From: Clostridia bacterium
Lineage (GTDB): Bacteria > Bacillota > Clostridia > Christensenellales > CAG-138
Assembly (NCBI GenBank): GCA_036677445.1
Contig: JAVBWI010000004.1
Location: forward strand, 342,786 to 406,785
Direction of reading: 5' to 3'
Length of the DNA: 64,000 nt
The position numbers were made by a program, and so were the translations under genes. The notes beneath the pieces were generated by a model, which ran no database searches, was not told where the DNA came from, and was given only the letters and a program-made list of their open reading frames with translations. How positions within the stretch are numbered: position 1 is the stretch's first letter; every line of letters starts with the position of its first letter. Below are positions 11,046 through 64,000 of this stretch, piece by piece.

Positions 11046-11104
11046 AGTCTAACTTACCTTACGATACACGATAGTACCCATATCGTTCAATACGCATTGT
11101 GAAT

Positions 11105-33505: not shown

Positions 33506-33548
33506 AACAACAGGCAATCCACATCACACACAAGGCAGGAGATCATAC

Positions 33549-45365: not shown

Positions 45366-46481
45366 ATGTTCACCATTTTAAGCGGCATAGATTGTTATTG
45401 TCCGGAACATATCGGATGTAAAGATATTCTGATGGTTGGCGATAAAATCGTTAAAATTGCAGAACCCGGAACACTGCAACTGCTATATGACTTCGGTCAG
45501 GTGATCGATTGCAACGGGCTCTATGCGTTCCCGGGTCTTATCGACCAGCATATCCATTTGATCGGCGGCGGCGGCGAAAACGGCCCGGCAAGCCGAATTG
45601 AAGAAATCGGCCTGAATGAGATACTGCTTGCGGGCGTAACGACAGTGGTCGGCGTGCTTGGCTTTGACAGTTATACCAAGAGCCTGAAAAGTTTGTTGGC
45701 AAAAGCAAACACGCTGGAAGCCAAGGGCCTGACGGCCTACATTTATACCGGCAGCTATGCTATTCCCACCGTAACGATAACCGGCACCATTGCGGAAGAC
45801 CTGATATTGATTGATAAAATCATAGGCACGGGTGAAATCGCGATCGCTGATTACCGGTCCTCCCAGCCCACGTTTCACGCGTTCGCACAGCTTTCGGCCC
45901 AAACCAATACCGCCGGGCTGATCAGCGGCAAGGCCGGCGTCGTACATATCCACGTGGGGGATGGCAAAGAAGGCTTATCGCCGCTGGTCAAGCTGTTGGA
46001 AAATACCGATCTGCCCAAAGGAATATTTGTCCCAACGCATATGAACCGGAACCCCGTTCTGTTTTCGCAGGCTGTGGACTATTGCGCCGGCGGCGGAAAT
46101 ATCGATTTGACAGCGGGCGAAACCGAGGGCTTGCCGGTACCGCGCGCTGTTAAGCTCCTTATAGAAAGGCAGATAGACCTTTCAACGGTGACCATCAGTT
46201 CGGACGCCAACGGCAGCGCCGGGCAGGCGGTTGCAAAAATCCAAGCATTATATGAGGATATCGTCAACGGTATCGTGCGGGAGCAAATTCCCCCAAGCCA
46301 GATGTTCCGGTTTGTCACTGAAAATGTCGCAAAAGTTTTGAAACTGTACCCGACGAAGGGTGTGCTGCGCGATGGCAGCGACGCGGATATACTGATTACC
46401 GATCACGAATATCACATACAAAAACTATTCTGCAGAGGACGGCTCATTGTGGACGACTGTCAGGTTATAAAGGATGCGTGA
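45366..46481 (+). CDS. iadA: Isoaspartyl dipeptidase
   Basis: Close by-eye colinearity with E. coli IadA (PGLIDQHIHLIGGGGENGP, VVGVLGFDS, THMNRN). Confidence 0.85.
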   Translation: MFTILSGIDCYCPEHIGCKDILMVGDKIVKIAEPGTLQLLYDFGQVIDCNGLYAFPGLIDQHIHLIGGGGENGPASRIEEIGLNEILLAGVTTVVGVLGFDSYTKSLKSLLAKANTLEAKGLTAYIYTGSYAIPTVTITGTIAEDLILIDKIIGTGEIAIADYRSSQPTFHAFAQLSAQTNTAGLISGKAGVVHIHVGDGKEGLSPLVKLLENTDLPKGIFVPTHMNRNPVLFSQAVDYCAGGGNIDLTAGETEGLPVPRAVKLLIERQIDLSTVTISSDANGSAGQAVAKIQALYEDIVNGIVREQIPPSQMFRFVTENVAKVLKLYPTKGVLRDGSDADILITDHEYHIQKLFCRGRLIVDDCQVIKDA

Positions 46482-47313
46482 AAATATGTTAAATGGATAT
46501 CTGATGATCATCGGGGGCGCCGAAGATAAGCAGGGCGAACGTTCGATTTTAAGCCATGCGGCGGATATGGTGGCGCGCGATGAAATACTCACCGTGGTTA
46601 CGACTGCCACAAAATACCCCGAAGAGGTCGGAAACGAATATAAGGATGTTTTTTACAGGCTCGGCGTGGATAACGTGGATATCCTCAATATAGACTCACG
46701 CGATGACGCCAATAATGCGGACGTTTGCGAGATCATCCGCAAATCCAAGTGCATCTTTTTTACCGGCGGCGACCAGCTGCGTATCACCAGTATATTAGGC
46801 GGTACGAAGGTGAATAATGAACTCCAGAATCTATATAAAGAAGGCGGCGTCATTATGGGTACCAGCGCAGGCGCATCGGCAATGAGTTCAACAATGATCG
46901 TCCAGGGCAACGACAATGAGCCCGCACGCAAATGCACGCTGAAAATGGCGCCTGGGCTTGGTTTGATCAGCAACTGCATCATCGACCAGCATTTTGACCA
47001 GCGGGGAAGATTCGGACGGCTCCTTTGCGGTATAGCCGAAAACCCGGATGTACTGGGCATAGGCATCGATGAGAATACCGCGATCAAAGTGTTTCCGGAT
47101 ACGCATTTTGAAGTGATCGGCGCAAACTCTGTCACCGTCATAGACGGAAGCACGATACAGAGTTCAAACGTTGCCGAGCTGGAGCCAAATGAACTCCTTG
47201 CGATCATTGGCGTAACGGTACATATTCTTCCCTTTGGATACGGATTCGATATGCAAAACAGAAAAGTCATCAGGCTGAAAAAAGTTTCCGGAGACCAAGA
47301 TGAAGATAATTGA
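46474..47313 (+). CDS. cphB: Cyanophycinase (intracellular type, no signal peptide)
   Basis: IIGGAEDK N-terminus and the catalytic Ser motif GTSAGA. The start overlaps the iadA stop; the alternative ATG is at 46486. Confidence 0.85.
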   Translation: MRENMLNGYLMIIGGAEDKQGERSILSHAADMVARDEILTVVTTATKYPEEVGNEYKDVFYRLGVDNVDILNIDSRDDANNADVCEIIRKSKCIFFTGGDQLRITSILGGTKVNNELQNLYKEGGVIMGTSAGASAMSSTMIVQGNDNEPARKCTLKMAPGLGLISNCIIDQHFDQRGRFGRLLCGIAENPDVLGIGIDENTAIKVFPDTHFEVIGANSVTVIDGSTIQSSNVAELEPNELLAIIGVTVHILPFGYGFDMQNRKVIRLKKVSGDQDEDN

Positions 47314-49888
47314 CGTTTCGATTTTCAAAGGAAGAAATATATACAGCCATTATCCGGTAATCAAGATGATTCTCGATGCTGAAAAGCTCAGCATGACTCC
47401 CACCAAGCAGATCAAGGGATTCAACGAGTGGGTTCTTCAGGAATTTCCGGGCTTAAAAACCAACCACTGCGGTCTCGGGTATGAAGGCGGCTTTTTAGAA
47501 AAGCTCGAAGCCGGAACCTACCTCGCGCATGTCATAGAGCATGTGATACTCGAAATGCAGTATATGGCGGGATATAATGTGGCATTTGGCAAGACCCGCG
47601 TTTTGGACGAGCCTTCAAAATCCTATATCGTGTATGAATACATCAATGAAGTATGCGGCCTGGAATGCGGCAAGGCCGCCATACATATCATAAACTGTTT
47701 TTTAAAGAACAAAAAAGCGAATGTAAAGGACATTCTTGCTTATATTCAGCAGGTTTCAAAAGACGCCGAACTCGGGCCGAGTACCGCCGCGATCTATCAC
47801 GAAGCGCAGCGGCGCGGCATACCCGTCTGCCGAATAGGCCATGAGAGTTTAATTCAGCTTGGATACGGAAAATACCGGCGGATGCAGCAGGCAACGCTGA
47901 CGGATGCTACCTCCTGTATTGCCGTAGATATATCCTCCAATAAGCAATTTACAAAAATGCTGCTGCGTGACAATGGTATCCCCGTGCCGGACGGCAAGCT
48001 TGTATTCAGCGAGATTTCCGCTCTGCTTGCCGCAAAGCAAATCGGTACGCCGGTGGCAATCAAACCCCATAACGGCAACCAGGGCAAGGGCGTGCATCTG
48101 AATCTCAAAAGCCAGCGCGAAATCAAGGCTGCGTTTAAAGACGCATGTTCCCACAGCAATTCTGTGATTGTCGAAAAATTCGTCAGCGGCAAGGATTTTC
48201 GCGTTCTGGTGGTAGGCGACAAGGTCAGCGCTGTTTCAGAGCGCCGCCCCGCCTGTGTCACCGGCGACGGCGTGCATACCATCAGCGAGTTGGTTGACAT
48301 CATCAACCAGGATGAAAATCGCGGAGACCACCACGAAAAACCGCTGACCAAGATTAAGCTTGACACCATTGCGCTCAAGCTGCTAAAACGTGACAAGCTT
48401 ACCCCGGCCTTTGTTCCCGGCAAGGGCGAGATCGTAAAGCTTAGGGAAAACGGCAATTTGAGCACGGGCGGGACCGCGACGGACCGCACGGACGAGATAC
48501 ATCCCGAAAACGCGGAGCTGGCCGTGCGGGCGGCCTCCGTCCTTGGGATCGATATCGCGGGCATTGACTTTGTTACCGAGGATATATCCGCCCCCATCCG
48601 TGAAACAGGCGGGGTGATCGTTGAAGTCAATACCGCGCCGGGCATACGGATGCATTTGTACCCAAGCGAAGGAACGCCCAGAGACGTTGCGAAGGATATC
48701 GTGGAATATCTTTATCCCGGCAATGACGCATTAAATTTCCCTATCGTATCCGTAACGGGCACGAACGGAAAGACAACCACAACAAGGTTGATCGCGCATG
48801 CGCTCGCCTGCTATGGCAAGTCCGTAGGCATGACCAGCACATCCGGCACTTATATCAACGGAAAATGCATTCATAAGGGCGACGATACGGGTGCATTGAG
48901 CGCGAAGGCCGTGCTGGCCGATAAATCGGTCGACGCGGCGGTGCTTGAAACGGCGCGCGGCGGGCTTATCCGCGCCGGCCTGGGGTATGATCTCGCGGAT
49001 GTCGGCGTGATCACAAATATCGCGGACGATCACCTGGGGCTGAACGATATCAATACGCTGGAGGATCTGGCGTTTATCAAATCTCTGGTAGCGGAGGCCG
49101 TGAAGGACACCGGGTACGCGGTTTTAAACGCGGATGACCCGATGACCGGCTATATTCTAAAACGGGTAAAGGCAAACGTGATTCTTTTTGCAAAAGAGTA
49201 TGCAAAAGCAAGAAGCCTATACAGGGATTTTGCGCTTGTATATGTATCCGAAGGCATGATCATGATAGAACATGACAGCGTTACTACATCGATTATCCAT
49301 GTGGATCATATACCCATCACCAAGCACGGCAATATTCCATGCAACGTTGAAAACAGCCTGGCCGCGGTCGCAGCGCTGTACGCGCTTCGTATTCCTGCCG
49401 AAACCATTGCGTTGGGGCTGTCAAGCTTTGCCGATAATGCCGGACGATTTCAACTCCATCGCTTAGGCAATTGCTCCGTACTGCTTGATTATGGGCACAA
49501 CGCCCCCGGATACAAGGCGGTCATCGACGCTTTGCCTTCTTATCAGTCCAAGCGTTTAATCGGCGTCATCGGTATGCCCGGAGACAGGCAGGACTCGGCA
49601 ATGCAAGCCGTAGGCGAACTGTGCGCAAACGCATTCCATAAAATTTATATTAAGGAAGACGCCAATTTGCGCGGCAGAGAGAAGGGCGAAGTCACCGCGC
49701 TCCTATACGCCGCCTTGACAAGCCGCGGTTTCCCCAAGGAAAACATCATGGTATTGGCAGATGAGCTGGACGCATTGAAGCTGGCGGTCAGCGACGCCCA
49801 AAATGGCGATTTGATCGTTGTATTCTATGAAAAGCTGCATCCGCTCACCGAGTATATGCAGCAGTTAGCGGGACAAAACCATCCCTGA
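47300..49888 (+). CDS. cphA: Cyanophycin synthetase
   Basis: 862 aa: an N-terminal CphA domain, an ATP-grasp module, and a Mur-ligase-like module with GTNGKTTT. The start overlaps the cphB stop by 14 nt. Confidence 0.9.
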   Translation: MKIIDVSIFKGRNIYSHYPVIKMILDAEKLSMTPTKQIKGFNEWVLQEFPGLKTNHCGLGYEGGFLEKLEAGTYLAHVIEHVILEMQYMAGYNVAFGKTRVLDEPSKSYIVYEYINEVCGLECGKAAIHIINCFLKNKKANVKDILAYIQQVSKDAELGPSTAAIYHEAQRRGIPVCRIGHESLIQLGYGKYRRMQQATLTDATSCIAVDISSNKQFTKMLLRDNGIPVPDGKLVFSEISALLAAKQIGTPVAIKPHNGNQGKGVHLNLKSQREIKAAFKDACSHSNSVIVEKFVSGKDFRVLVVGDKVSAVSERRPACVTGDGVHTISELVDIINQDENRGDHHEKPLTKIKLDTIALKLLKRDKLTPAFVPGKGEIVKLRENGNLSTGGTATDRTDEIHPENAELAVRAASVLGIDIAGIDFVTEDISAPIRETGGVIVEVNTAPGIRMHLYPSEGTPRDVAKDIVEYLYPGNDALNFPIVSVTGTNGKTTTTRLIAHALACYGKSVGMTSTSGTYINGKCIHKGDDTGALSAKAVLADKSVDAAVLETARGGLIRAGLGYDLADVGVITNIADDHLGLNDINTLEDLAFIKSLVAEAVKDTGYAVLNADDPMTGYILKRVKANVILFAKEYAKARSLYRDFALVYVSEGMIMIEHDSVTTSIIHVDHIPITKHGNIPCNVENSLAAVAALYALRIPAETIALGLSSFADNAGRFQLHRLGNCSVLLDYGHNAPGYKAVIDALPSYQSKRLIGVIGMPGDRQDSAMQAVGELCANAFHKIYIKEDANLRGREKGEVTALLYAALTSRGFPKENIMVLADELDALKLAVSDAQNGDLIVVFYEKLHPLTEYMQQLAGQNHP

Positions 49889-50007
49889 TGGAAAACCGCA
49901 TGGGTACCACACTCTCTTATCTTATCTACGTATGCGATCAGGTCGCCTACGCCATAGCCGTTGGCGGCCACCTGCCGCATGTTGCCGCCAAAACGGCAGG
50001 CCTTCAA

Positions 50008-50031
50008 AGTCCGGAGTACCCGGACTTTTTC
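50008..50031 (+). terminator. Intrinsic terminator after cphA
   Basis: AGTCCGG-agtac-CCGGACT followed by TTTTTCTTT. Confidence 0.65.
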
Positions 50032-50085: not shown

Positions 50086-52206
50086 TTATTGACCGGCCGG
50101 CATGATTCTTTGCAGTTCGCGAACGATATCTTCAATTCGATAGGGTTTTTGTACAGCGCCGCTAAAACCGTATGCATGATAATTGGACAATACGGGATTA
50201 TTGGAATAACCGCTCGCAACAATAGCAACAACATCGGGATTCATATCTTTCATGCATTTCATTGCCTCTTTACCGCCCATACCCCCCGGAATTGTGAGGT
50301 CTAATATAACGGCATCATAAGGTTTCCCCATCTTCATGGAATTTCTGTAAAGATCAAGCCCGTCAGCCCCGTCATGAACGGCATCCGCCATATAGCCATA
50401 CATTTTTAACAAATCAGCCAAGGAATCGGCTATGGATTCCTGATCCTCAATCAGTAATATCCGTCCATTACCCGGCTGAATTTCTTTTCCATTTGTTTGG
50501 ACTTCAGTTTTTTTACGAGATGCCGGAAGATAAATATGAAAAGCCGTGCCCTTTTCCTCTTCCGACTCAACCGTAATATAACCGCCATGCTTTTTTATAA
50601 TGGAATACGAAGTTGCAAGCCCAAGTCCGCTTCCTTTTTCTTTTGTGGTGAAATAGGGATCGAATATTTTGCTTAAGTTCTCGTTTGGGATTCCAATCCC
50701 CTGATCGATAACGGATAATTTTACATAACTTCCATGACTTATAGGCAGATTGTCGTTTGAGCCGGCAAAAAAATTATCAGCCGATATCCTTATAACGCCG
50801 CCGTTGGGCATAGCCTGATCAGCGTTAATAACCATATTGTTTATAACCTGGCTTATTTGCCCCTGGTCTATTTCCACAACATAGAGATCAGGGGCAAAAG
50901 AAAATTCGCACTTTACTTTGGAGCCCCGGAGGGCAAACCCGGCCGTATCCGATATCAGATCCGGCAATAAGGATGCTTTTTTTACCGGGCTTCCGCCTTT
51001 TGAAAAGGTAAGCAGTTGCCGCGTGAGCGATTCAGCGTTATGGCAGGTCTTTTCCACCATGTTCAGATATGGATAAACGCTTTCGTCGAGTTTGTATTTC
51101 TTTCTTATTAACTGCATGACGTTTAGTATCACTGTCAATTCATTATTGAAATCATGCGCAATTCCTCCGGCCAGAACTCCCAGGGATTCAAGCTTCTGCA
51201 CCTTTAATAATTCCATGTTGGCGCGTTCAAGTTCCGCGGTGCGCCTCGCAACAAGCTCCTCAAGATACTCCCCGCTTTTTTTCATTTGTTCCAGCAACAA
51301 AATATTCTCATAGGCTATCGCGGCCTGCATGCCCAATGTCATGGTTATCTCCTCATCCACATCGGAGAACCGCATACAATCCAGTTTATCCTTCAGGCAA
51401 ATCCAGCCGTAAACGCAAGTGGGAGAGGTAAACGGAACCGCCATGAGCGATTCCACTGATATGCCAGTTTCGCAGGTAAAAGAAGACGCCGACGGCCATC
51501 GGTACGGCAAGCGCCGGGTAACCACGCGATGTAGGATTTCTTCCGGGGGAAGCAAACCATCCGGACCGGAAGCAGCAGGCTCACCCTGGGCGTGGCTGAT
51601 AAAATACTCTTTTCCGCCATCCCTTTCAATCATCAGTACGGAATGCCTGCAATTGAAAAATTCGAGCAGGATTCGGGGAATACAGCACAGGAGTTTTTGC
51701 GGATCACGCTGTGCTACCATACTGTAGCTCAGATCCATCAGCACAGAAAGCTGAAGTCCTCCGATCTGCGAAAAAGACGATTCTGCTGGATTTTGACGGG
51801 GCACGTCCGTCACAGTCTGCAGATCTGTTAAGGCAGACGGAGCTCCCAGCAGCTCACTGACCGTCTTCAGAATAAACTCCGGATCGGAAGGCTTTGGAAT
51901 AACACGGCAGGTTCCATATGTTTCGTCCAAACGGATACTTTCCGGATAACGGCAGGAAGCGGTATAAAAAATGACGGGCGTCTTCTTCAGCGTCGATTCC
52001 AACCGCAGCTTGCGGACAAATTCCAGTCCGTCAATGGAAGGCAAAAGTATATCGCTTATAATAAGATCCGGCCGCTCATTGTATGCAAGCGTCAACGCCC
52101 CGGTACCCTCAACCGCCTCTAGTACATGATGTCCCGCGTAACTAAGCAGGCTAGCAAGCATTTGCCGGCTCATTGCGTGGTCTTCGACAATAAGGATAGT
52201 TGCCAT
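50086..52206 (-). CDS. Hybrid sensor histidine kinase (REC-GAF-HisKA-HATPase-REC)
   Basis: N-terminal receiver (DLIISDILLPSIDG), H-box GIAHDFNNELT, ATPase G-boxes (DQGIGIP, GSGLGLA), C-terminal receiver (AVILDLTIPGGMGG). Confidence 0.85.
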   Translation of the reverse strand: MATILIVEDHAMSRQMLASLLSYAGHHVLEAVEGTGALTLAYNERPDLIISDILLPSIDGLEFVRKLRLESTLKKTPVIFYTASCRYPESIRLDETYGTCRVIPKPSDPEFILKTVSELLGAPSALTDLQTVTDVPRQNPAESSFSQIGGLQLSVLMDLSYSMVAQRDPQKLLCCIPRILLEFFNCRHSVLMIERDGGKEYFISHAQGEPAASGPDGLLPPEEILHRVVTRRLPYRWPSASSFTCETGISVESLMAVPFTSPTCVYGWICLKDKLDCMRFSDVDEEITMTLGMQAAIAYENILLLEQMKKSGEYLEELVARRTAELERANMELLKVQKLESLGVLAGGIAHDFNNELTVILNVMQLIRKKYKLDESVYPYLNMVEKTCHNAESLTRQLLTFSKGGSPVKKASLLPDLISDTAGFALRGSKVKCEFSFAPDLYVVEIDQGQISQVINNMVINADQAMPNGGVIRISADNFFAGSNDNLPISHGSYVKLSVIDQGIGIPNENLSKIFDPYFTTKEKGSGLGLATSYSIIKKHGGYITVESEEEKGTAFHIYLPASRKKTEVQTNGKEIQPGNGRILLIEDQESIADSLADLLKMYGYMADAVHDGADGLDLYRNSMKMGKPYDAVILDLTIPGGMGGKEAMKCMKDMNPDVVAIVASGYSNNPVLSNYHAYGFSGAVQKPYRIEDIVRELQRIMPAGQ

Positions 52207-52212
52207 TGCATC

Positions 52213-52596
52213 CTACTCTTTTCTTCTGTTTGTTTGAATAAACGATTCAATCTGCCTGACGAATACTTCGGGTATAATCGGCTTGCTGATGTAATTATCA
52301 AATCCTGCGGCAAGTACCTTTTCCCTGTCTCCTACCATTGCGAGAGCGGTAACGGCAATAAGCGGGATATTTTTGAGTTGAGGATCATTTTTTATATAAC
52401 GCGCCACCCCGTAGCCATCCACCCTGGGAAGATGTATATCGCAAATGATCAGATCGGCCCTTTCCTGATGCGCCAGCCGTATTCCCTCTTCCCCATCCGC
52501 CGCCATAAGGACTGTATAGTTGAAAACCTGCAGCAGATAGGTAATGAGCTCAAGGTTGATGGAGTTATCCTCTATAACCAATATTCGTTCATGCAA
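52213..52596 (-). CDS. Single-domain response regulator (receiver only)
   Basis: 127 aa; [31 protein letters not shown]. All conserved receiver residues are present. Confidence 0.9.
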
Positions 52597-54229
52597 TATT
52601 TGTCAGCTCCTTATCTTTTCCCAGTACCAGCTGAAAGACGCTACCTTTGCCGAACTCGCTTTGAAATTCAATATGCCCGCCAAGCAATTCCGCCAGTTTT
52701 TTGCTTAGATGAAGGCCTAATCCCGTACCTTCATGCCGTCGGGCGCTGCTTGAATCCACTTGCGTAAAAGCCTGAAAAAGCTTGTCCTGATCCTCGGGTT
52801 TAATGCCTATTCCGGTATCCGATACGCTGAATTGCACCTGTGCCAGGCTATCGTCACACCGTAACTCTAACCGGACTTCTCCCTTTTCGGTAAACTTGAT
52901 CGCATTGTTGGCGAGATTGATCAGGATCTGGCTTACAGCCCGGCGGTCTGTATGCAGGATGATATCCTCATCCGGCATATTGCAGATTAATTTGAGGTAT
53001 TTATCATCCGCAATCGGACGAAGCGTATCGGCAATATCCTTTAGAACGCTTTTGCAGGATACCGGCTCCGGGTTTACCTCAACCTTGCCGGATTCTATCT
53101 TGGAAAGATCCAGAAGGTCGTTGATAAGCAAAAGCAAATGCTTGGCGCTTGCAGATATATTCTGGAGCTGCTTTTCCTGTTCGGCGTTAAGCGGTCCGGG
53201 CAGTTTCATCAAAAGCGTTCCGGTAAAGCCGATAATGGCATTGAGCGGCGTGCGCAATTCATGACTCATATTGGCAAGGAATCTGTCTTTGGCCAGCAAT
53301 GCATTTTCCAACTCGACATTTTTTTCCTGCAGCCTGTCCTCAGCCAGTTTCCGCTGCTCAATCTCCTGTTTCAGCTGTTTATTGGTTGCCTCCAAATCGG
53401 CCGTTCGTTCCGCCACCCTCTTCTCCATCTCGCCGTATGCCCTGTGCAGTTTTACCTCCGCCATATCACGCTCCGTCACATCGCGGAAAACTAAAATTAC
53501 GCCTATAATTTTTCCCCGGTCATCCTGAATAGGCGCGGCGCTGTCATCGATAGGAATTTCCCTTCCGTTCTTGGCAAGAAGCAATGTATGGTTGGCCAGG
53601 CCGACAACCGCCCCTTCCTGCATGACTCTTTCCGCAGGATTTTCAACGGTCAGGCGCGTATTCTTGTTTATAATCCTGAATACATCCGTCAGCTTCTCAT
53701 GCTGTGCCTCCTCTATCTTCCATCCCGTCAGTTCCTCTGCAACCATATTCATGAAGGTAACCCGGCCTTTGTCATCCGTAGCGATGACGGCGTCCCCGAT
53801 ACTTCTGAGTGTTGTCGAAAACCATTCTTCACTTTCTTTCAGCTTTTTTTCCATCTTGTGCTTATACAATGCCATGTCGATGGAGATATCCAGTTCGCGC
53901 TCCTTAAAGGGCTTGACGATATATCCATAAGGATCGGTTATTTTGGCGCGCTGCACCGTATCTTCATCCGCATAAGCGGTCAGATAAATCACAGGGATTC
54001 CATAGCTGGACATGATTTGCTTTGCAGCCCAAACCCCGTCGACCTCTCCGTGAAGCATGATGTCCATAAGCACCAGGTCAAAACTTATCTCCTCCGTCAG
54101 CTTGATCGCTTCTTCCCCGGATAATGCGATAACAGGGCAGGAATATCCTAAATTCATCAGCCTATGCTGAATATCCAGCGCCTCAATGCCTTCATCCTCA
54201 ACAATTAATATCTTGGCGTCAGTCATCAT
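52589..54229 (-). CDS. Hybrid sensor histidine kinase (REC-PAS-HisKA-HATPase)
   Basis: Receiver ([14 protein letters not shown]), a PAS region, H-box [11 protein letters not shown], ATPase motifs (DTGIGI, GTGLGL). Confidence 0.85.
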
Positions 54230-54240
54230 ACCGTCTCCTT

Positions 54241-57200
54241 TTATTTCATCGCTTCAAATAAAATGGTAAATCGGGTTCCGTTGTTTCTATCGATATAAAT
54301 TTCACCCTTGAGCTGCCTTACCAATATATTGACTATTTTAAGCCCCAGCGAATTGCTGTTTTGTATGATAAAATCGTCCGGCAGACCTATGCCGTTGTCA
54401 CCCACAACCAGCTTATACCTGTTTCCCGCGCCATGACGCAGATCGATTTGTATTTCTTTCTTCCGGTCAGGGCATCCGCCGGAAGCGGAAAAAGCGTATT
54501 TTAAGGCATTTGAAACAAGCTCGTTCATAATCAGAGCGCAGGGGATTATCGTATCGATGTTTAGCGTAATATCGTCTACGTATATTTTAGGGCTTATACT
54601 CCTCTCGCTAATACCATAAGACAAAAACAGATTGGCGATTAGGTTTTGAATATATTCAGGCAGATTGATCCTCGCCAGCGATTCGGACTGATACAGTTTT
54701 TCATGAATAAGCGCCATCGTGAAAATCCGGTTCTTGCTCTCCTTTAGTAACCCGATAACCAGTTCATCCGTAGTATAAAGCGATTGAAGGTTCAGCATGC
54801 TGTGAATGATCTGGAGATTGTTTTTTACGCGGTGATGGATTTCCTTAAGAAGCACCTCTTTTTCATGCAGGGCTGAACGCAAATGCGCCTCGCTGTCGTA
54901 TAGCTCCTCATTGGCAGCCGCAAGCTCGGCCGTCCGTTTCATCACGCGCTGTTCGAGTTCCCGGTTGAGCTTTTGTATTTCCGCCTCGGCCTTGTTGCGG
55001 TCGGTAATATCGATGCCCATCTCCAGAATAAGATTGGAGCCATCCGCGTCTACAAACGGGAAATCAAAAACGTCATAATCGCGGCCGTCCGGCCCGGTCC
55101 ATTTCCAGCTGCAGGGGGATTTTGTTTCCAAAACGCCGTAGGTTTGGCAATTCTCACATGGCTTATCGTGACCAAACAGGAATTCGAAGCAGCGCTTCCC
55201 ATGCGCTTCGCCAAAGCGCTCCCGAAATACGCGGTTGGCAAAGGGCGCGTGATAATCCGGGGTTAAGAGAACCACATATACCGGGAGTATCTCTAAAATT
55301 TCATTGAACCGCCGCTGTTCGACTATTACCTGCTCCTCGGCCTGCTTGCGGCGGGTAATATCTTCCTCCAATAGCTGATTGGTTCTGGCCAGTTCCGCAG
55401 TTCTTTCCAGAACCCGCATCTCCAGCTCCGCCTTTGCGCCCCGCAGCGCCTCCTCCGCCCGTTTCATCTCGTCCACCAACCGGGAATTTTCAAGAGAAAT
55501 TGCCGCCTGTGATGTCAGCAATTCCGTTAATTGCGTCTTTTCCGATGTAAAAACGGCGTCCGACAGACGGTTTTCCAGGTATAACACGCCTATCTTCTTG
55601 GACTGTTTGATAACCGGCAGGCAAAGAACAGATTTTAGCCGCATATGCCGGACCTCCGGATTATCCTTAAATATTCCCTCCTGCGCGGCGTTATTCAGTA
55701 CCAGCCGCTCTCCCGTCCTGTAAACGTAACGGGCAATGGCTTTGCAGATATCCCGCGTATCTTCCAGTTTTCTGTTGACCGTCCGTATGATTTGCTTTTT
55801 TACGACATGGCTTTCCGCATAGACAAACAGGCCATCGTTTTCCTGTATCAACAAATATCCGTGCTGTGCGCCGGAACTCTCGATCACCACATTCATAATC
55901 TTTTTTAACAGAGTATCCTGCTCTATTTCGGCGGCAATCGCAATAGACGATTTCATCAGATAATCAATATCCAGCGGAGGAAGGATATTGGGTGCGGCCG
56001 TCTCCAATTCCAATTGCGGAACGACCGCTTTCTCTTCCTTGAAATATTCAGGATATTTATTGATAAGATTTGATTCCTTGCGTTCCGCCCCACACGCCCG
56101 GTATAACCTGGCTGCCTCGGCAAAGTAAACCCTCTGCGTGCATTGGCCGGACTTCAACAGCAGTTCTCCAAGGCACTCATTGAGATGCCCTTCCAGAAAC
56201 GTATATTTTTGTTCATGTGCGATATTGATCGCGTCAAGATATAAGCTTCTGGCCTCTTTGAAGCTGCCAGCCACCCTTTCCCGTTCTGCGTATAAAAAGG
56301 CAAGGTAAGGTTTCAATAAGGGGCCTAAAGCCGCCCAGGTTTCAATTTTTTCAACAACAGGCCGGATTTCTGCTATAAGCTCATCAAAAGCACCGCCGGA
56401 TTCCTGTTCGAACAATTTCAGCTTGTTTAAAACCAAAAAGACATGCCATTGCCTTTTTAGAACGTTATCGGTAAGGCCGGATAAATATCGCTTTACCTCC
56501 TCGAGATACCGCCCCGCTTCTTCATATTCTCCAAAATAGTAATGGGATATCGCCATATGGACGCAGTAGCTGCCGGCCGAAGCAATATGATTATCCTTTT
56601 CCCACAAACGAAGCTTTTCATCCATTGATACATGGACGCAGTTCTTTTTCATGTGCCCGACCCAGCCGGCTTGCATCGCCTCGGCAAGTCTGGCTGAAAA
56701 TGCTAAATTGAATCGGTTCGAAAATTGAAGGCACTCGTTTGCATAGTCTTCAATTGCGGACATATCGGCGCCCTGCACCTGGAGATTCCACATTAACGGT
56801 CCGTAAGAAAGCCCCGCATTATACAGGTCGCCGCAGTTTTTCCCGCATTGGATCGACTTTAAGCAATACTCCACAATCTGCTTCGGATGGCTTCTTGAGT
56901 GCATATTGCACCATACGATACCGTTCATGCCCCTGGTTGCGCCAAAAGTATTCGGATATTTTGCGGAGAGATCGCGCGCAAGGTCCTCAAACCTGAATGC
57001 CTGTTCAAAGTCCCCCTGCTCTCCCAATAGAAGCCCCATGATGCTGAAGGAATATATGACCGATTCATCCATACCACCCGAGAGGCAATGCTGGGTAGAC
57101 TGCGCAGCGGAAAGATAAAGCTGCGGTACAAGGCCGGACATATACAGGTCGGGTATCAGCTCACTGTAGAAGGCAAGCTCAATTTTGCTCTTCCGTTCAT

Positions 57201-59856
57201 TTGTAAAAGGCATATTCAGGATCGCCTCATAAATATCGAAATCCTTTGCGAATATGTCGGATATCAGTCTCTCCCTTTTTCTTTGCGCTTTAACTGGGTC
57301 TTCCGGGATAGTCTTTCCAAAAATGCTGAGTCCTTTGTTGGCAGTCTCGATTGCTTTTATAAAATTGCCGATGGAAGACAACGAGGTCGTTTGTTCCGCC
57401 AGGCATTCTCCCTTGTCCAGGTCGGTTATTGCTTGATCCAACAACAGATTGAGCAACCTTTCGGAATTTGTGTAGTTCCCGCACATGAGCTCGGTTTTTG
57501 CCGCTTTTTTCAATATACTGAAGGTGCGCTGATAATGGGTTCCATTCCAGCAATCGTCCGGCAACAGCGATCTGCTGATTTGGAAATACTCATTTGCCGC
57601 TTCTGTAGCAAGCGTGTCAAGCGCCTTGTTGCCGGCATAGTAGTTTAAGTCCGACAGAAAATAGGCTTGCTGCCCGATTACTTTTTCTTCTTTCCCCATA
57701 TTAAGGTGTGAAACGATCGCAAAGAGGTTTTCTGCTTTTTCCAGCTCCATATCCGCCGGAATCGTTGTGAGGAGATAGTTTCCTACTTTTCGGTGTATCT
57801 GCCGCCGGTCCTCTGCCGGAATTAAGGATAATACCGCTTCCTGCACTCGATCATGTATGAATTGCAGCTGGCCCTTGTTCTCTATCAGCAGTCCCTGGCT
57901 TAGAACTGGTTTTAGCAGCTCATACAGCTCAAATAGAGACATTCCATTGATAGCGGAAATATCATTGGGTGAAAACGAATTCCCCATACACGCGCAATAT
58001 TTGAGCAAACCTGTCAAGCCCGGTGCGAGCTTCTGAATTTTAGCGCTAAAAAGCGCAACTACCGTAGTCGGCATATGCGATTGATTAACTTTGCCAACGT
58101 CCCAGCACCATTGCCTTTTTTCATCGAAAAAAAGCAGGCCTTCGTTGTAGAGATACGAGAGGCTTTCACTGACAAAAAGCGGGTTGCCTTCGCTTAGGGT
58201 GCTGATAAAATCCGACAATGTTTTGGTTTTTGAGCGGGGTGAATCGAGGATATAGGAAACCATCTCATGACAATGATGCGGTTTCAAAGATTCTAACCTG
58301 ATTTCCGTTAAAGGCCAGCCGCTGATCTTTGCATTTGTGATAAGCTTTGAGAGTGGGTGACTTGAATCAACCTCGTTATGACGGTATGCTCCCAGCAGGA
58401 AAAAGTAGGGATGATCCCTGTAATTGGCCATTATATTTGATAAAAAGTCAAAGGAGGCCATGTCGCACCATTGAAGATCGTCTATAAACAACGTCAATGG
58501 GTTTTCTTCACTGGCCAGACAAGTCAGAAACCGGTCAAAAAGATCATGATACCGGTTCAATGCCTCGACCGGCGGAAGCGCTTTTACATCGGGCTGCGGG
58601 CCAATCAGTATTTCCAATTCCGGGATAGCGTCAGTCAATACCCTGGCATTATTTCCTACTGATTGTAAGATTCTTTTTTTCCAGTTTGCAGCCCGCTCAT
58701 TGCTTTCGGTCAGAAAAGTTCTGATCAAGTTTTTAAGAGCCTGTATCAAGGAGCTATAGGGAATATTTTTTTGATAGATATCGAACTTTCCAGATGTAAA
58801 ATAGCCCTTATGCTTGACAATAGGATTTTGCAACTCCTGTATCAGGCGGGTCTTTCCTATGCCGGACAACCCGGATATCAGCAGCGAACGGAATTCACCC
58901 TTGACCACCTGCTCGTATTCCTGAAGTATAGTCCCGGCCTCTTTATCCCGGCCTACCATTTTGGAAACAAAGGGTATTTTTTGAATGCTTACGCATTTTT
59001 CTAAAAGAAATTCGCGTATTGCCCCGGTTTTTGCGTACTCAGCCTGGCATCGCATTAGGTCGGTTAAGAGCCCGCCGGCGCTTTGATAGCGTTTTTCCGG
59101 CTGCTTTATGATTAGTTTCGCAATGATTTTGCTTAATGCAACGGGGATATCCGGGTTGTGTATATGAACCTGAGGGGCTTCTTTTGCAAGATGTGAATGA
59201 ATCAATTCCAGCGGATCATCCGAATAAAACGGCAATTCGCCTGTCAATATCTCATAAAACACAATGCCCAGTGAATATAGGTCGGAAGAGAAAACAACCC
59301 GATGATTGATGCGTCCCGTTTGCTCCGGGGATGTATATGATAACGTATTTCTGATAAAGGAACGATCATAGATAAAATGGCTGACATCCCTGACATCCAC
59401 GGTGCTGATAAAATCTATTAATCTGATATCCGATATATTTGAACCGACAAGGATATTGTGCGGTTTAATTCCGCCATGGATGATTCCGGCTTCATGAATT
59501 TTCTCTAAAGCCTGTGTGAGTCTGTAAGCTAAAATAAAAAAATCGCTTAACGGTAATTGAGGATGCTCCTTTATAAATACATCAAGCGAAATCCCATTAA
59601 AATACTCCTGCGTTATAAAGCACATGCCATCTTTTACTTCAAAGGAATCCGGTGTAATCAGCAGTGGGTTTTTTATAACCTTAAGGTGCTCAATCTTCTG
59701 ATCAAACTGGGCTTTTTTATATCCGGAAAAATTTATTGATTTTAATACTTTAAGAACAAGTGTCTGATTCGGATTTGCTTGATGATATACCTTGAAGACG
59801 GCAGTGTGTGGAACCTCGGCTACCTTTTCTACTATTTCATAATTTAATATTTTCAT
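54241..59856 (-). CDS. 1871-aa multidomain signalling protein: degenerate Ser/Thr-kinase-like domain, AAA (AAA_16/STAND-like) ATPase, TPR-like region, GAF, PAS, HisKA_2-type histidine kinase
   Basis: Kinase-like N-terminus ([30 protein letters not shown]); Walker A GLSGIGKT and Walker [11 protein letters not shown]; GAF ([20 protein letters not shown]); PAS with CENCQ; H-box [13 protein letters not shown]; ATPase [20 protein letters not shown]. Confidence 0.85.
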
Positions 59857-59947
59857 GGATTTCTCTTTCCAGCCTTCAGTTAAGTATGAAATATATTAAA
59901 TTTTAATCTGAATAGGCGGTCATAGTACCGCCATCAGGTCTGCGTAT

Positions 59948-60742
59948 CTATGCGACACCTTCCGGAAAACTGGCCATTTCGCGGCCATGTTTCATTAACA
60001 GCCTGTCCGCCACAAGCGCTATGAATTCTCCATTGGTGGGTTTATCGTACTTTGAATAGATTTTGCAGTCAAAGAATTGGTTAATATTTTCAATCTTGCC
60101 GCGTTCCCATGCAACCTCTATTGCATGGCGGATGCCTCGCTCTACTTTACTTGACGTTGTTGAGAACTGTTTCGCGATACAGGGGTATAGCTCTTTCGTC
60201 AGGTGGTTAATGAGTTCGGGGTTATTGAATACCATTCGAATTCCTTCCCGGAGATAATGATACCCTTTAATATGTGCCGGGATTCCGGTAGCGAGAAAAA
60301 TGAGCGTGATTTCTTCGCTAAGCGTTTTCGGCGGCTGAGGCGAGGCAGACTTACTTGTCTCCGGCTGCGCCGTTGTAAGCATATCCAGCATCCTCTTGTA
60401 CAGCGTTTCCGGCTCTATAGGTTTCGCCATGTAATATCTGGCGCCTAGTGTGAACGCGTAACGGATCATACTCTCGTTGCGGATAGCGGAGACCACGATC
60501 ACCGCCGGCTGTTCGCCCCCAATCCTTCTGAGATTCTCAAGTATGCCCAGCCCATCCAGCTTCGGCAAAATTAGACCCATCAGCAGGGCGTCGTACCGCT
60601 TTAAACGCATTTTCTCAAGGGCTTGACGTCCATCCGTAGCAATATCCACCAACTGTACTTTTTCCTGCGCAGAAAGGTACTTGTATACGAAATCACGGTA
60701 CTGCGGATCGTCATCCACGAGCAGAACAGCATACTTAGACAT
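59948..60742 (-). CDS. Spo0A-family transcription factor with an atypical receiver (Gly at the phospho-acceptor position)
   Basis: The C-terminal domain is near-canonical Spo0A (GIPAHIKGYHYLREGI, SKVERGIRHAIEVAW, KPTNGEFIALVADRL). The receiver aligns gap-free with B. subtilis Spo0A but reads LLMGLILPKLDG where Spo0A has LVLDIIMPHLDG. The start is taken at the ATG at 60742, after AAGGAG. Confidence 0.85.
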   Translation of the reverse strand: MSKYAVLLVDDDPQYRDFVYKYLSAQEKVQLVDIATDGRQALEKMRLKRYDALLMGLILPKLDGLGILENLRRIGGEQPAVIVVSAIRNESMIRYAFTLGARYYMAKPIEPETLYKRMLDMLTTAQPETSKSASPQPPKTLSEEITLIFLATGIPAHIKGYHYLREGIRMVFNNPELINHLTKELYPCIAKQFSTTSSKVERGIRHAIEVAWERGKIENINQFFDCKIYSKYDKPTNGEFIALVADRLLMKHGREMASFPEGVA

Positions 60743-60796
60743 TTGATTCTCCTTGTCCCCTGCTATTTCATTTATAATCTTAACCGATGGCCGAAA

Positions 60797-60917
60797 TTCG
60801 TCACGAAAACCGAAAAAATAATAATTCAATTTGTCAGTATATAATAGTATAATAGCATGGTAAAATTACCGTTACAAGTTAGAATGTGTCAGGTAATTTG
60901 TCGAAAAATAGGTCGAA
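60797..60917. promoter_or_regulatory. 0A-box-like heptamers in the divergent promoter region
   Basis: TGACGAA on the minus strand (60797-60803), TGTCGAA (60899-60905) and GGTCGAA (60911-60917) on the plus strand. The consensus 0A box is TGNCGAA. Confidence 0.4.
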
Positions 60918-61071
60918 TGAGGCGTACCAAATCGTACCGGGACATGTAGCGTAAAGTAAAAACCTTATCAAATTATCGGATAATATGCTGCGCGACGGTA
61001 TACTTATAAGACCGTTGCAAATATGTTTACAAAACATCATGCCTACAAGCTAAGAGAGTTGTGGAAAACAT

Positions 61072-61584
61072 ATGAAAGAAAAAACCTGCTGTTTTGCCGC
61101 ACAAAACCGGCGGATTATATCCGACGAAGATAATCCCGGTTGCATTAGGCTTATTCTTAAAATTACTCTGGAGATCGAGTTAATGATAAAAAAAGGATGC
61201 AATACATTCATAACCGGAATGGATTGGAGGTCGGAGCTTTGGTTCGCAGAAGCAGTACTTGATTTGAAACGTGCTTATCCACAAAAAAGTATTAATCTTA
61301 TCGTCGTTCAGTATGCGGGGCAAGCCTCACGATGGAACAAATATTATCTGGATCGTTATAAACGCGTACTCTTGCACGCCGATGATAAGGTAACATTAGG
61401 GGCAGACTATTATAACGGTTATATGCAGCAGTTAAATCAATATATGATAAGGCATTCGGCTCACATGATAGCTTTATTTGCCGGCAGGAAGGAACCTGTT
61501 ATAGCTTCCGATCCGGATACAGTGATTATAAACCCAAACGACTTTTTCGTGAAAAAGCCGCGCATTTTTTCAATCGTAAAATAG
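61072..61584 (+). CDS. DUF1273 / SLOG-family protein (YpsA-like)
   Basis: 170 aa; KTCCF..., CNTFITGMDWRSELWFAEAVLDLKRAYP and LNQYMIRHSAHMIALF resemble the YpsA/DUF1273 family. The usual TGHR-type N-terminal motif reads FAAQNRR here. Confidence 0.6.
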   Translation: MKEKTCCFAAQNRRIISDEDNPGCIRLILKITLEIELMIKKGCNTFITGMDWRSELWFAEAVLDLKRAYPQKSINLIVVQYAGQASRWNKYYLDRYKRVLLHADDKVTLGADYYNGYMQQLNQYMIRHSAHMIALFAGRKEPVIASDPDTVIINPNDFFVKKPRIFSIVK

Positions 61585-61629
61585 CGGGTTAGCTTAGCAT
61601 CTAAACCATTAAGGAAGCAGGAATAATAA

Positions 61630-62013
61630 GTGTCACATCGAATTTTGATTGCCGATGATAACAAGGACTTTACCAGTATTTTTAAAGACTACATTTCCTT
61701 ATATAATGATATCGAACTTGTTGGAATAGCGGAAAATGGCTGCAAGACATATGAAATGCTGTTGCAGGAAAAGCCTGACCTGTTAATTTTGGATCTTGTT
61801 ATGCCTGATATGGATGGAATCGAAGTCCTTCGCCGGATTCGTGACATGGACGGCGTCAAACCCGCAATATTCGTGATTTCCGCGCTTAGCAACGATGCTA
61901 TCACCCGTGAGGCTCTGACGCTGGGAGCTTGTGCTTATTTCATTAAGCCAATCAACCTTGAATCTATCGTCTCTCGAATACGCGCAGTTATGCAAACCAC
62001 GTCACAAGTTTGA
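61630..62013 (+). CDS. Stand-alone Spo0A-type receiver domain protein (no DNA-binding domain)
   Basis: GTG start. The 127-aa product aligns gap-free with the Spo0A receiver (ILIADDNKDF, ELVGIAENG, PDLLILDLVMPDMDGIEVL, ISALS, YFIKP) and stops right after the receiver. Confidence 0.8.
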   Translation: MSHRILIADDNKDFTSIFKDYISLYNDIELVGIAENGCKTYEMLLQEKPDLLILDLVMPDMDGIEVLRRIRDMDGVKPAIFVISALSNDAITREALTLGACAYFIKPINLESIVSRIRAVMQTTSQV

Positions 62014-62049
62014 GATGAAGTCTTGCTCCGGATTAAACTCATAGCCTGC

Positions 62050-62270
62050 TGACAGGCCTCTTAGGGGGTGTGGGGGATCAAAATCCCCACACCTATTCAA
62101 AGTGGTTTTTCGAACAATAAAAAGGGGCTGTCGCGCTAAATGTTCAGGCACTTAGCACGACAGTCCGGGTTCGTGCCCAAACAGGGCAAAATCGGTCCGA
62201 CGGGCCGATTTTAGAACCCCTTTACCTTTCGCATTATGCACTGAAAATGCTTAATGCGGCAACCCCTTTT
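62050..62270. repeat. Multi-hairpin intergenic repeat array 5
   Basis: GGTGTGGGGA-tcaaaa-TCCCCACACC; CTGTCGCGCTAA...TTAGCACGACAG; AAAATCGG...CCGATTTT; and the terminal hairpin TCGCATTATGCA-ctgaaaa-TGCTTAATGCGG (62229-62258) followed by CCCCTTTTT. It shares modules with array 2, and GGGGGTGTGGGGGA with array 3. Confidence 0.8.
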
Positions 62271-62353
62271 TATCGATCTTACAGCATCTACCATACCTTC
62301 GCCGCTACGCTTTTGCAGCAATGCAGGGACAGCACCGGCACTCCTTAATCTGT

Positions 62354-62641
62354 CTATTTATATACCGTAGTATAACCTTCCATAGAATGGCGATGGCCAT
62401 CGTTATAAGTGGTTAACCCTCTGTAATGGTGATCATGCCCGCCATTTACATTTTCCTCGGGCCCGGTAGTAAATTCAAACCCGTGTAAATGGTTATCATT
62501 AATTGTAGTACGCCCATTGATGCGATGCGTATGTCCTTTTATATTCGGGCTGGCGCTCGTCTCACCGTCATAATAGTGAATATGGCCGTCATTTAAGGTT
62601 GTTTGGCCTGTAAATCTATGCGTATGCAGTCTCATCGACAT
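62354..62641 (-). CDS. ymaF: YmaF-family His-rich repeat protein
   Basis: The start is taken at the ATG at 62641, after GAGGTG. Four repeats of H-x-H...G-x-T...D/N-x-H-x-H/Y (HTHRFTGQTTLNDGHIHY, HTHRINGRTTINDNHLHG, HDHHYRGLTTYNDGHRHS). Confidence 0.75.
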   Translation of the reverse strand: MSMRLHTHRFTGQTTLNDGHIHYYDGETSASPNIKGHTHRINGRTTINDNHLHGFEFTTGPEENVNGGHDHHYRGLTTYNDGHRHSMEGYTTVYK

Positions 62642-62877
62642 AAGAATCACCTCTTATTGACCATTTTATGTAAACGCTTTTTTTGTGTGCCTGAACGTGC
62701 ATTGCATATAAGAATATTAAGCGTGTCTTTTATACAATATCTTGTGGTGTGAGGATTCGGAAAAATTTAGAAAAAACGCCCACTTCGCGTTAATGTGGCA
62801 AAAGGCGGGCATTTTACTTATATAAGTAATACTGTTTTCACAGATTCAGTTTATATGAAAGCGAGCCTCGATTCTAC

Positions 62878-63190
62878 TGTGAAACTGCACCCAAAAGATA
62901 GACAGTGTGGTACACTGAATAATGGAAGGGGGGCAGTTTCATGCCCAGAGGGAAGCCCAACAAAGAGTATACAGGAGAGTTCAAGCAATTTGAGATTCCA
63001 AATCACGAGCGGGTGCGGCAATGGGAACGTATTTATCTGGAGGAAGGCTCTGCGGGGCTATATGTGGAACGGCGAGGCCATGGCGGAAAGGGGCGTCCGC
63101 CAAGCTGGACAAGCAGGTAGAAGAAGATCTGACAGCTGAAAATCAGCGGCCTCGGGCTGAGAATGCGTACCTAAAAAACTTGCAAAGCTT
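62878..63190 (+). pseudogene. IS3-family (IS150-group-like) insertion-sequence remnant: left end plus decayed orfA, no orfB
   Basis: A TG-initiated candidate terminal repeat TGTGAAACTGCACCCAAAAGATAGACAG at 62878. The reading frame from ATG 62941 gives MPRGKPNKEYTGEFKQ / FEIPNHERVRQWERIYLEEGSAGLYVERRG and then needs a frameshift near 63100 to continue as KLDKQVEEDLTAENQRPRAENAYLKNLQSL, an IS3 OrfA leucine-zipper-type tail. No DDE transposase follows. Confidence 0.6.
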
Positions 63191-63191
63191 A

Positions 63192-63228
63192 AGGGCTTGC
63201 CGCCCGCTCTTCACAGGCGGCAAGCCCT
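63192..63228 (-). terminator. Terminator-like hairpin downstream of the flavoprotein gene
   Basis: 13-bp perfect stem AGGGCTTGCCGCC (63192-63204) / GGCGGCAAGCCCT (63216-63228). On the minus strand the T-run begins about 14 nt after the stem. Confidence 0.5.
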
Positions 63229-63260
63229 CTCGGCTGCCCATGACGCCCGGGCAGATGCTG

Positions 63261-64000
63261 TTACTTCACGTAGGAGGCGGCCTCCCGACCGGCGATACGG
63301 CCGCTGCCAAAGGCGTACATCATAGTGGTGCCGCAGATGTCGTAGTAAGGCTTGTGGTACATGCTGCCGCCATCCTGACCCGCCACATAGAGGCCAGGGA
63401 TCGGCTTGTTGGATGAATCGAGCGCCTGCAGCTTTTCGTTCACCTTCACGCCACCCAGCGTACCAAAGCAACCAGGGAGGAATTTCACTGCATAGAACGG
63501 CCCCTCCGCAATAGGGATCAGGTATACGTCGCGCTTTAAGAGATCCGTATCTTCGCCTGCGGCGACCAACTCGTTGTAGCGTGCCACGGTGGTGGAAAGA
63601 TCCGCAAGGCCGGTTTCGTCTTGGAGCGTCTTGATGCTGTTCGCCTTCCAAACGAAGCCGTTTTCAATGCCGAATCCCATCTCGCGCGGGAGCTCGCTCA
63701 ACGGCGAATTTGCCCCAGCGAACATGGGCGGCACGCCGGAGGTGGAGCCGTAGAAGCTCAGCCGCTCCAACTGCGGGGCCTGCTTTTCCGCCTCGTCTGC
63801 GGGCAGTAACTCCTTGAGGCCGCCCGCTACCAGCATATCGTATGTCTTCTGATCGAAAATGACATAGTACGCTCCCATGGAGGAAGCGGCTGCGCCGCCC
63901 TGATTGAGCGGCTGCTCGCGGAACAGGGCCTCGTTGAAGTAGCGATCTCCGTTGGAGTTGACCATCAGTAGCGCTGCTACCGAGAGCAGGTTGATATGGA
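63261..64000 (-). CDS. FAD-dependent oxidoreductase (fumarate-reductase/flavocytochrome-c flavoprotein family), C-terminal part; 5' end outside the window
   Basis: The frame stays open to the window edge. The C-terminal motif GLYVAGQDGGSMYH...GSGRIAGREAA is typical of this family. Confidence 0.75.
   Translation of the reverse strand, partial: HINLLSVAALLMVNSNGDRYFNEALFREQPLNQGGAAASSMGAYYVIFDQKTYDMLVAGGLKELLPADEAEKQAPQLERLSFYGSTSGVPPMFAGANSPLSELPREMGFGIENGFVWKANSIKTLQDETGLADLSTTVARYNELVAAGEDTDLLKRDVYLIPIAEGPFYAVKFLPGCFGTLGGVKVNEKLQALDSSNKPIPGLYVAGQDGGSMYHKPYYDICGTTMMYAFGSGRIAGREAASYVK

Follow-up and report, generated by a model that had tools for sequence, protein, structure and literature searches.

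Spo0A is the textbook phosphorylation-gated master regulator. In Bacillus subtilis Spo0A, the receiver, when unphosphorylated, inhibits the effector domain. The usual synteny of the gene is argR-recN-spoIVB-spo0A, an order that is typical and not strictly defining. Many Clostridia are predicted to have Spo0F/Spo0B relays, and in Desulfotomaculum acetoxidans such a relay has been verified (Davidson 2018, PMC6136694). Among 118 Spo0A-positive Firmicutes, 10 genomes carry two copies of Spo0A and one carries three, and Spo0A is also common among non-spore-formers (Galperin 2022, 10.1101/2022.02.25.481979). Response regulators with aspartate-less or pseudo-receiver domains are a recognised class (PMC4395418, PMC12632262, PMC4125116). 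Here, we analyzed a window of 64,000 nt of a Clostridia bacterium (contig JAVBWI010000004.1, positions 342,786 to 406,785), which contains a signalling block of about 12.5 kb. In this block, the gene of a Spo0A-family regulator with a Gly at the phosphoacceptor position precedes, in the same orientation, four genes for kinases and receivers, the first of which encodes a giant protein of 1871 aa; a divergent pair encodes a YpsA/SLOG protein and a stand-alone Spo0A-type receiver (Table 1). We consider it about an even call that the block pairs a mobile kinase-cascade cassette with a Spo0A-family regulator that acts independently of phosphorylation, the two being co-located and probably co-transcribed.

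The block resembles the Spo0 phosphorelay (Kin-Spo0F-Spo0B-Spo0A) in that a Spo0A-type output is encoded together with several kinases and single-domain receivers. It differs in having no Spo0B or Hpt, in its receiver-fronted hybrid kinases and in a terminal protein without acceptor Asp. When domains were called with Pfam and NCBIfam profiles, six receivers were found, five with an intact Asp and one, that of the Spo0A-like protein, with the Gly; the H-boxes of all three transmitters are intact, and neither profile set detected an Hpt or Spo0B domain in any open reading frame (ORF) of the block. The initial annotation of this stretch had already counted the five intact receivers and three transmitters correctly and had listed no Hpt. 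It had also started from the premise that Clostridia lack a Spo0F/Spo0B relay, which is outdated (Davidson 2018, PMC6136694).

The regulator shares the REC plus Spo0A_C architecture of canonical Spo0A (B. subtilis, Geobacillus stearothermophilus, C. difficile; structures 1LQ1, 1FC3 and 1DZ3/1QMP). It matches PF00072 (E=4e-21) and PF08769 (E=1.4e-38) and scores 255 bits against the TIGR02875 equivalog, above the curated cutoff of 200, with an overall identity of 42% to B. subtilis Spo0A. Its effector domain aligns with the Spo0A-DNA complex 1LQ1 (E=5e-37); the 'PAHIKGY' motif and the recognition helix, TTSSKVERGIRHAIEVAW compared with TTASRVERAIRHAIEVAW in B. subtilis Spo0A, are nearly identical, and the protein probably still recognises 0A-box-like DNA. 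The receiver has kept the acidic pocket (DDD), a Ser at the Thr84 position and Lys106. However, it reads LLMGLILPKLDG where Spo0A proteins read LxLDIIMPxLDG, which puts Gly56 at the position of Asp56 in B. subtilis and Asp55 in G. stearothermophilus. In an alignment to the solved G. stearothermophilus receiver (1DZ3/1QMP), this Gly lies opposite the phosphorylated Asp, and the same Gly is present in another strain of the species (L084; Logan SRR27176488). Judged by these residues, the protein cannot be phosphorylated at the canonical site and, since the acceptor Asp is replaced by Gly, cannot serve as a canonical phosphorelay end point. The gene starts at an ATG at 60742 with a strong AAGGAG 7 nt upstream, which is also the start chosen by gene callers. 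It is the most conserved block gene between the two strains, with one nonsynonymous and six synonymous changes and a ratio of nonsynonymous to synonymous substitution rates (dN/dS) of 0.048, and given this conservation it encodes a functional protein. Aspartate-less regulators such as ChxR, HP1043, WhiI (with BldM) and CmrT likewise combine a receiver fold lacking a phosphorylatable Asp with a DNA-binding domain, and E and G substitutions recur among relatives. Unlike them, the window protein is encoded beside an Asp-bearing Spo0A-type receiver and a kinase cascade. No description of an Asp-less state in the Spo0A family was found in the literature searched.

The regulator also differs from canonical Spo0A in its genomic position, being encoded not beside spoIVB, recN or argR but upstream of the kinase cassette. 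Scans for Spo0A homologues in one genome per GTDB species and in JGI metagenomes revealed no close relative; the top hits showed 65% and 60% identity, respectively. Among loci with at least 47% identity to the window protein, spoIVB was nearby in none of 81, and there was no conserved neighbour either; by comparison, spoIVB occupies position -1 in 53 of the 76 loci with at most 46% identity, where recN and argR lie farther upstream. The 64-kb window itself contains neither spoIVB nor other sporulation genes. In a neighbour-joining (NJ) tree, the window protein has a long terminal branch and groups within a clade of about 79 leaves, all without linkage to spoIVB. Members of this clade in Clostridia, Eubacteriales and Christensenellaceae metagenome-assembled genomes (MAGs) are named 'sporulation transcription factor Spo0A' by the NCBI pipeline. 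The nearest Asp-containing relatives (65-69% identity) are found in core-genome settings, either in the order HD-domain gene, spo0A, PNPOx gene or near pth/mfd, tRNA synthetases and dnaA, and one of them adjoins a SipL-domain sporulation gene. Because of these settings, the clade appears to represent the resident Spo0A in a lineage that lost the spoIVB linkage. The term Spo0A paralogue, used in the initial annotation, is thus unproven, since in the genomes of the nearest relatives the corresponding gene appears to be the resident spo0A. A second clade-type Spo0A of the window genome did not appear among the 120 nearest proteins, although a canonical copy of about 40% identity would fall outside that set.

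It is worth noting that loss of the acceptor Asp recurs in this clade. A residue other than Asp occupies the acceptor position in 22 of the 98 locus-derived clade sequences (19 E, 2 G and 1 A), compared with one of 49 spoIVB-linked proteins, and in 17 of the 120 nearest database proteins (10 E, 6 G and 1 A), for which an NJ tree requires at least seven changes. The share of members with E, G or A is 14-22%. This recurrence shows that Spo0A proteins of the lineage tolerate states predicted to be phosphorylation-independent. Taken together, an Asp-less Spo0A under purifying selection and at least seven Asp losses in the clade suggest that direct phosphorylation is dispensed with in the control of Spo0A-type factors in part of the Clostridia. 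If this is true, the prediction of sporulation from genomes that annotation pipelines label 'Spo0A-positive' would be affected.

Members of the spoIVB-unlinked clade (loci L002-L038 and L087-L134; proteins P0137-P0255) come from uncultured Clostridia and Christensenellaceae-type MAGs of gut and rumen. A Glu-acceptor variant, P0251, occurs on 894 contigs, one of them of 2.6 Mb. Firmicutes bacterium ADurb.Bin248 (MWBW01) carries two clade members (L021 and L024), 61% and 57% identical to the window protein, which represent either true paralogy or a mixture of strains in the bin.

The giant protein encoded downstream of the regulator belongs to a family of more than 7,700 proteins (7,791 of the 8,000 scored candidates had E<=1e-20). 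Relatives with 60-73% identity over 79-100% of the length were found across phyla, archaea included (Chloroflexota, Desulfotomaculum, Pelotomaculum, Nitrospiraceae, Desulfobacteraceae, Methanoperedens and Methanosarcina). This identity extends over about 1,700 aa; conservation of such strength is unusual and implies extensive inter-domain transfer. In the Ser/Thr-kinase-like domain, IHGGIKPHN replaces HRDLKPxN, DFI replaces DFG and the Gly-rich loop is missing. All but a few of the 120 nearest relatives have the HGG motif, and since the dead-kinase substitutions are common to nearly all of them, this domain is, by its motifs, a conserved pseudokinase and catalytically dead. In the same protein, the P-loop of the AAA_16 STAND NTPase (GLSGIGKT) is intact, as are the ATP-binding boxes and the H-box of HisKA_2 (HHRVKNNLQ). 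The initial annotation had assigned the domains of the block in agreement with Pfam and NCBIfam, except for a PAS domain in the 1871-aa protein, where none was detected at E<=0.01. We also considered regulation of the Spo0A-like protein via Ser/Thr phosphorylation by the giant protein and rejected it, as throughout the family the kinase-like domain has no catalytic Asp, no Gly in the DFG motif and no Gly loop. No functional study or characterisation of the family was found in the literature searched.

Several described systems share parts of this design. The uncharacterised giant 'AAA family ATPase' kinases of Chloroflexota, Desulfotomaculum, Pelotomaculum, Methanoperedens and others have the same architecture, the HGG/DFI motifs and a downstream receiver-fronted gene; they differ in that a Spo0A-family gene precedes the giant gene only in the window and in L084. 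The HWE/HisKA_2 networks (PhyK, LovK) have in common with the block the HisKA_2 transmitter, whose best NCBIfam match is PhyK with 128 bits, and the single-domain receivers, but all scores in the window are far under the equivalog cutoffs. In the multi-kinase cascades of Myxococcus (EspA/EspC, RedCDEF), as would be the case here, a transmitter feeds receivers that control further kinases. None of PhyK/LovK, EspA/EspC and RedCDEF has a counterpart to the giant N-terminal pseudokinase-STAND-GAF part of the window protein.

Comparison of loci reveals which genes travel with the giant kinase. In all four loci seen (the window, L084, L085 and L086), the giant gene is followed by a receiver-fronted gene. 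At L085, a REC-PAS-HK-REC gene, whose product is 49% identical to the 546-aa kinase of the window, starts within a few bases, and at L086 a REC-STAS gene is equally close, with 57% identity to the 546-aa kinase over the receiver; no Spo0A gene is present at either locus. As the receiver-fronted gene is found downstream in other genomes too, the conserved unit is the giant kinase plus the downstream receiver, very probably its cognate acceptor. We regard this giant pseudokinase-STAND-histidine-kinase family as noteworthy in itself: it is strongly conserved, uncharacterised and spread across phyla and archaea, and it has a clear candidate for the cognate receiver. The interest of the locus lies mainly in this family and in the Asp-less Spo0A clade, not in a new clostridial phosphorelay.

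As a separate observation, the genes downstream of the giant kinase at L086:2950-14146 (Desulfotomaculum sp. 1211_IL3151) encode a partner-switching set of REC-STAS, STAS and two HATPase_c_2 proteins, with further kinases after it. In this other Firmicute, the giant-kinase sensor appears to be wired to an anti-sigma-type output.

The five minus-strand genes of the block are tightly packed, with one 8-nt overlap and gaps of 6, 11 and 91 nt. We propose that they combine two parts. The first would be a widespread, horizontally promiscuous sensor cassette, namely the giant kinase and the receiver-fronted gene, expanded here into a cascade. The direction of phosphotransfer that we infer would lead from the phosphorylated His of the giant kinase to the receiver at the N-terminus of the 546-aa PAS kinase, and from this kinase to the translationally coupled 127-aa receiver and/or to the receivers of the 706-aa GAF hybrid kinase. 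The overlap between the genes of the 127-aa receiver and the 546-aa kinase suggests translational coupling and a second cognate pair, and the logical reading of the set would be a kinase-to-kinase cascade, not a His-Asp-His-Asp relay. The second part would be a Spo0A factor of the spoIVB-unlinked clade, which keeps the 0A-box recognition helix and whose receiver is a Gly56 pseudo-receiver. Its gene would head the same transcription unit, given the 91-nt gap (59857-59947), on the minus strand of which no terminator was called. Two 0A-box matches lie upstream of the gene (TGACGAA on the minus strand at 60797-60803 and TGTCGAA on the plus strand at 60899-60905), so the regulator may set its own expression and that of the kinase genes. 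Regulator and kinases would thus be linked by transcription or by protein contacts, not by Asp phosphotransfer onto Spo0A. A hairpin lies within the 91-nt gap (z = -3.5 for a 121-nt segment) and is possibly an attenuator or a processing site. No Rfam element was found in the block.

The block deviates from its surroundings in composition, for which the reference was the 64-kb window and not the whole genome. Its G+C is 0.458 compared with 0.532 for the rest of the window, and none of the 151 other 12.5-kb windows falls under 0.513. G+C at third codon positions (GC3) ranges from 0.41 to 0.56 in the block and from 0.56 to 0.76 in nearly all other window genes, and tetranucleotide distances to the non-block profile are 20-29 and 10-17, respectively. 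The AT-rich island that had been noticed from spot counts of single lines (30-48% against about 60%) is therefore real in all three measures, and smaller than those counts had indicated. The same block is found in L084, between cphA and a BcrAD/DUF2229 gene; the presence/absence comparison among close relatives covers these two strains only, and both carry it. Nucleotide identity between the strains is 97.0% in the block and 96.5% in the cphA flank, with synonymous divergence (dS) of 0.03-0.12 and 0.06-0.16, respectively. The dN/dS values are 0.05-0.23 throughout, indicating purifying selection on all block genes (0.23 for the 706-aa kinase, 0.07 for the 127-aa receiver at 52213-52596 and 0.125 for the SLOG gene). 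Because its divergence is the same as that of the flanks and dN/dS is low, the block is, by this estimate, older than the split of the two strains and has been kept by selection.

Further examination of the block revealed no tRNA and no integrase or mobility gene, and flanking direct repeats were limited to 15-mers at chance level. The IS3 fragment next to it consists of a 59-aa ORF (62941-63120) that continues in another frame. By Pfam it gave weak HTH matches only, and it was recovered by stitching the two frames and by tblastn (E=1e-15 to IS3-family OrfA). It lies in a 3.6-kb segment together with a flavoprotein gene (FMN/FAD, G+C 0.59) and a TetR gene (window 62690-64000; L001:4463-8053). 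In L084 this segment is absent and the YmaF gene abuts the BcrAD/DUF2229 gene, so the fragment evidently marks a neighbouring strain-specific indel and not the acquisition of the block. The proposal of horizontal acquisition made in the initial annotation thus does not hold for a recent event, given that divergence from L084 equals that of the flanks and that mobility genes, tRNA and repeats are missing. Since the composition is deviant and the family widely distributed, an ancient transfer of the kinase cassette is likely and is the simplest explanation of the composition.

Of the divergent gene pair, the 127-aa Spo0A-type receiver (61630-62013) belongs to a rare family of eight clusters, all of them single-domain. 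At L175 and L176, the neighbours of the family member are unrelated, whereas at L177 a member with 55% identity stands beside genes for a PAS histidine kinase, another lone receiver and a Spo0A_C regulator that is very divergent but has kept its Asp; this family member is plainly a near-copy of the adjacent regulator's own receiver. L177 is a second, independent co-location of the family with a Spo0A-type gene and a kinase, and the only comparative hint that receiver and regulator work together. The SLOG gene is 98% conserved in L084 and was seen beside such genes only in the window species. With regard to L177 itself (L177:3104-6969), this is a compact cluster on a metagenome contig of 36% G+C, the kinase is of PAS-PAS type, and the Spo0A_C regulator has 31% identity to B. 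subtilis Spo0A and a changed recognition helix.

We then weighed the combination of cassette and regulator against other explanations. No multi-kinase set stands beside a Spo0A-family gene at any of the 160 other Spo0A loci examined, and beyond the window the arrangement of Spo0A and kinase cassette was found only in L084. Of the new arrangement that had been claimed, the rare adjacency of Spo0A and multiple kinases is borne out, while a phosphorelay to Spo0A is contradicted by the Gly at the acceptor position. A possibility to be taken seriously, if an unlikely one, is that the two parts are accidental neighbours: the cassette would have landed or been assembled beside a Spo0A-family gene, with the kinases signalling elsewhere and the regulator acting independently. 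The cassette occurs without Spo0A in other genomes, with different downstream modules, and at no other Spo0A locus. Several observations speak against a functional unit, the first two of them also for this view. The adjacency is limited to two strains of one species and could be accidental. The hairpin after the stop codon of the Spo0A-like gene could terminate part of the transcripts in the 91-nt gap. The two 0A-box matches in 330 bp are suggestive only and count as weak evidence, and across the window there is no enrichment of 0A boxes (35 found, 42 expected). In addition, an Asp-less Spo0A-like protein could, unless otherwise activated, be locked off rather than constitutively active. On the other hand, regulator and kinase genes share their orientation and are 91 nt apart, the Spo0A-like, SLOG and receiver genes share the low GC3 of the kinases, every block gene is under purifying selection, and at L177 the receiver family is found, independently, together with a kinase and a Spo0A paralogue. 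We continue to favour a cassette co-located with a phosphorylation-independent regulator.

A rather improbable variant is that Spo0A function is split between two proteins. The cascade would phosphorylate the stand-alone receiver, which would then pair with the Asp-less receiver and release the DNA-binding domain. BldM-WhiI (PMC4125116; discussed for pseudo-receivers in PMC12632262) offers a model for such control in trans through a receiver heterodimer. If true, phosphorylation-dependent control of a Spo0A-family factor would act in trans, and in a wider sense an entire clade of clostridial Spo0A would repeatedly have escaped direct control by phosphorylation.

It is still more doubtful that the regulator is a decoy or antagonist, competing with a canonical Spo0A from another place in the genome for 0A boxes or kinases and damping entry into sporulation. 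The conserved recognition helix, the non-phosphorylatable receiver and the long branch separating the protein from its nearest relatives would fit this role, and Spo0A paralogues do exist in Clostridia (Galperin 2022, 10.1101/2022.02.25.481979); against it, the 120 nearest proteins include no second clade-type Spo0A of the window genome, a set in which a copy of about 40% identity would be unlisted. Finally, the multi-step phosphorelay of the initial annotation, ending on a Spo0A paralogue and controlling sporulation-type genes, is very improbable: three intact transmitters and five intact receivers beside a Spo0A_C output, with the DDD pocket, the Ser and Lys106 retained, would suit it, but the acceptor is Gly in both strains, Hpt and Spo0B domains are missing from every block ORF, and the cassette works without Spo0A elsewhere.

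Table 1. Positions (in the 64,000-nt window) and properties of the features in and around the signalling block.
Feature	Position	Strand	Remarks
Hybrid kinase, 706 aa, REC-GAF-HisKA-HATPase-REC	50086-52206	-	Both receivers with acceptor Asp; H-box AHDFNNEL
Single-domain receiver, 127 aa, Asp intact	52213-52596	-	Start overlaps end of 546-aa kinase gene by 8 nt
Kinase, 546 aa, REC-PAS-HisKA-HATPase	52589-54229	-	H-box SHELRTPLN
Giant protein, 1871 aa, Pkinase-like, AAA_16, weak TPR, GAF, HisKA_2, HATPase	54241-59856	-	
GC-rich hairpin, 6 bp, no proper U-tract	59915-59932	-	16 nt past stop codon of Spo0A-like gene
Spo0A-family regulator, 264 aa, pseudo-receiver and Spo0A_C	59948-60742	-	Acceptor codon GGT (Gly56) at 60575-60577
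Divergent promoter region	60743-61071		Two 0A-box matches and a promoter-like site at 60877-60849 (minus)
YpsA/SLOG (DUF1273) protein, 170 aa	61072-61584	+	PF06908, E=4e-14
Stand-alone Spo0A-type receiver, 127 aa, Asp intact	61630-62013	+	Best NCBIfam match Spo0A N-terminus, 130 bits
Strong terminator, 15-bp stem	62128-62163	-	Between convergent receiver and YmaF genes
YmaF-family protein, 98 aa	62354-62650	-	G+C low as in block; conserved in L084
IS3-family OrfA fragment, frameshifted, without OrfB	~62941-63200	+	

All seven ORFs of the block are located where the initial annotation had placed them, and the spacing was reproduced from those coordinates; the five packed minus-strand genes and the divergent SLOG/receiver pair match its description in coordinates, overlap and gaps. 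The cphA terminator at 50006-50028, just before the block, and the IS3 remnant named there were also recovered. The 'hairpin array' described there consists of ordinary terminators and inverted repeats.

Outside the block, two ORFs of host-typical composition, 39783-41384 (533 aa) and 11099-12238 (379 aa), matched no Pfam profile at the thresholds applied. At 45366-49888, a set of overlapping cyanophycin genes encodes CphA (TIGR02068, 1147 bits), a Peptidase_S51 cyanophycinase and an amidohydrolase that may be an isoaspartyl dipeptidase. A second regulatory hub, unrelated to the block, consists of a sigma-54 gene (28911-30281) and, a few kb away, the gene of a 911-aa sigma-54 activator (35708-38443); PTS enzyme I (33489-35243) is encoded between the two.

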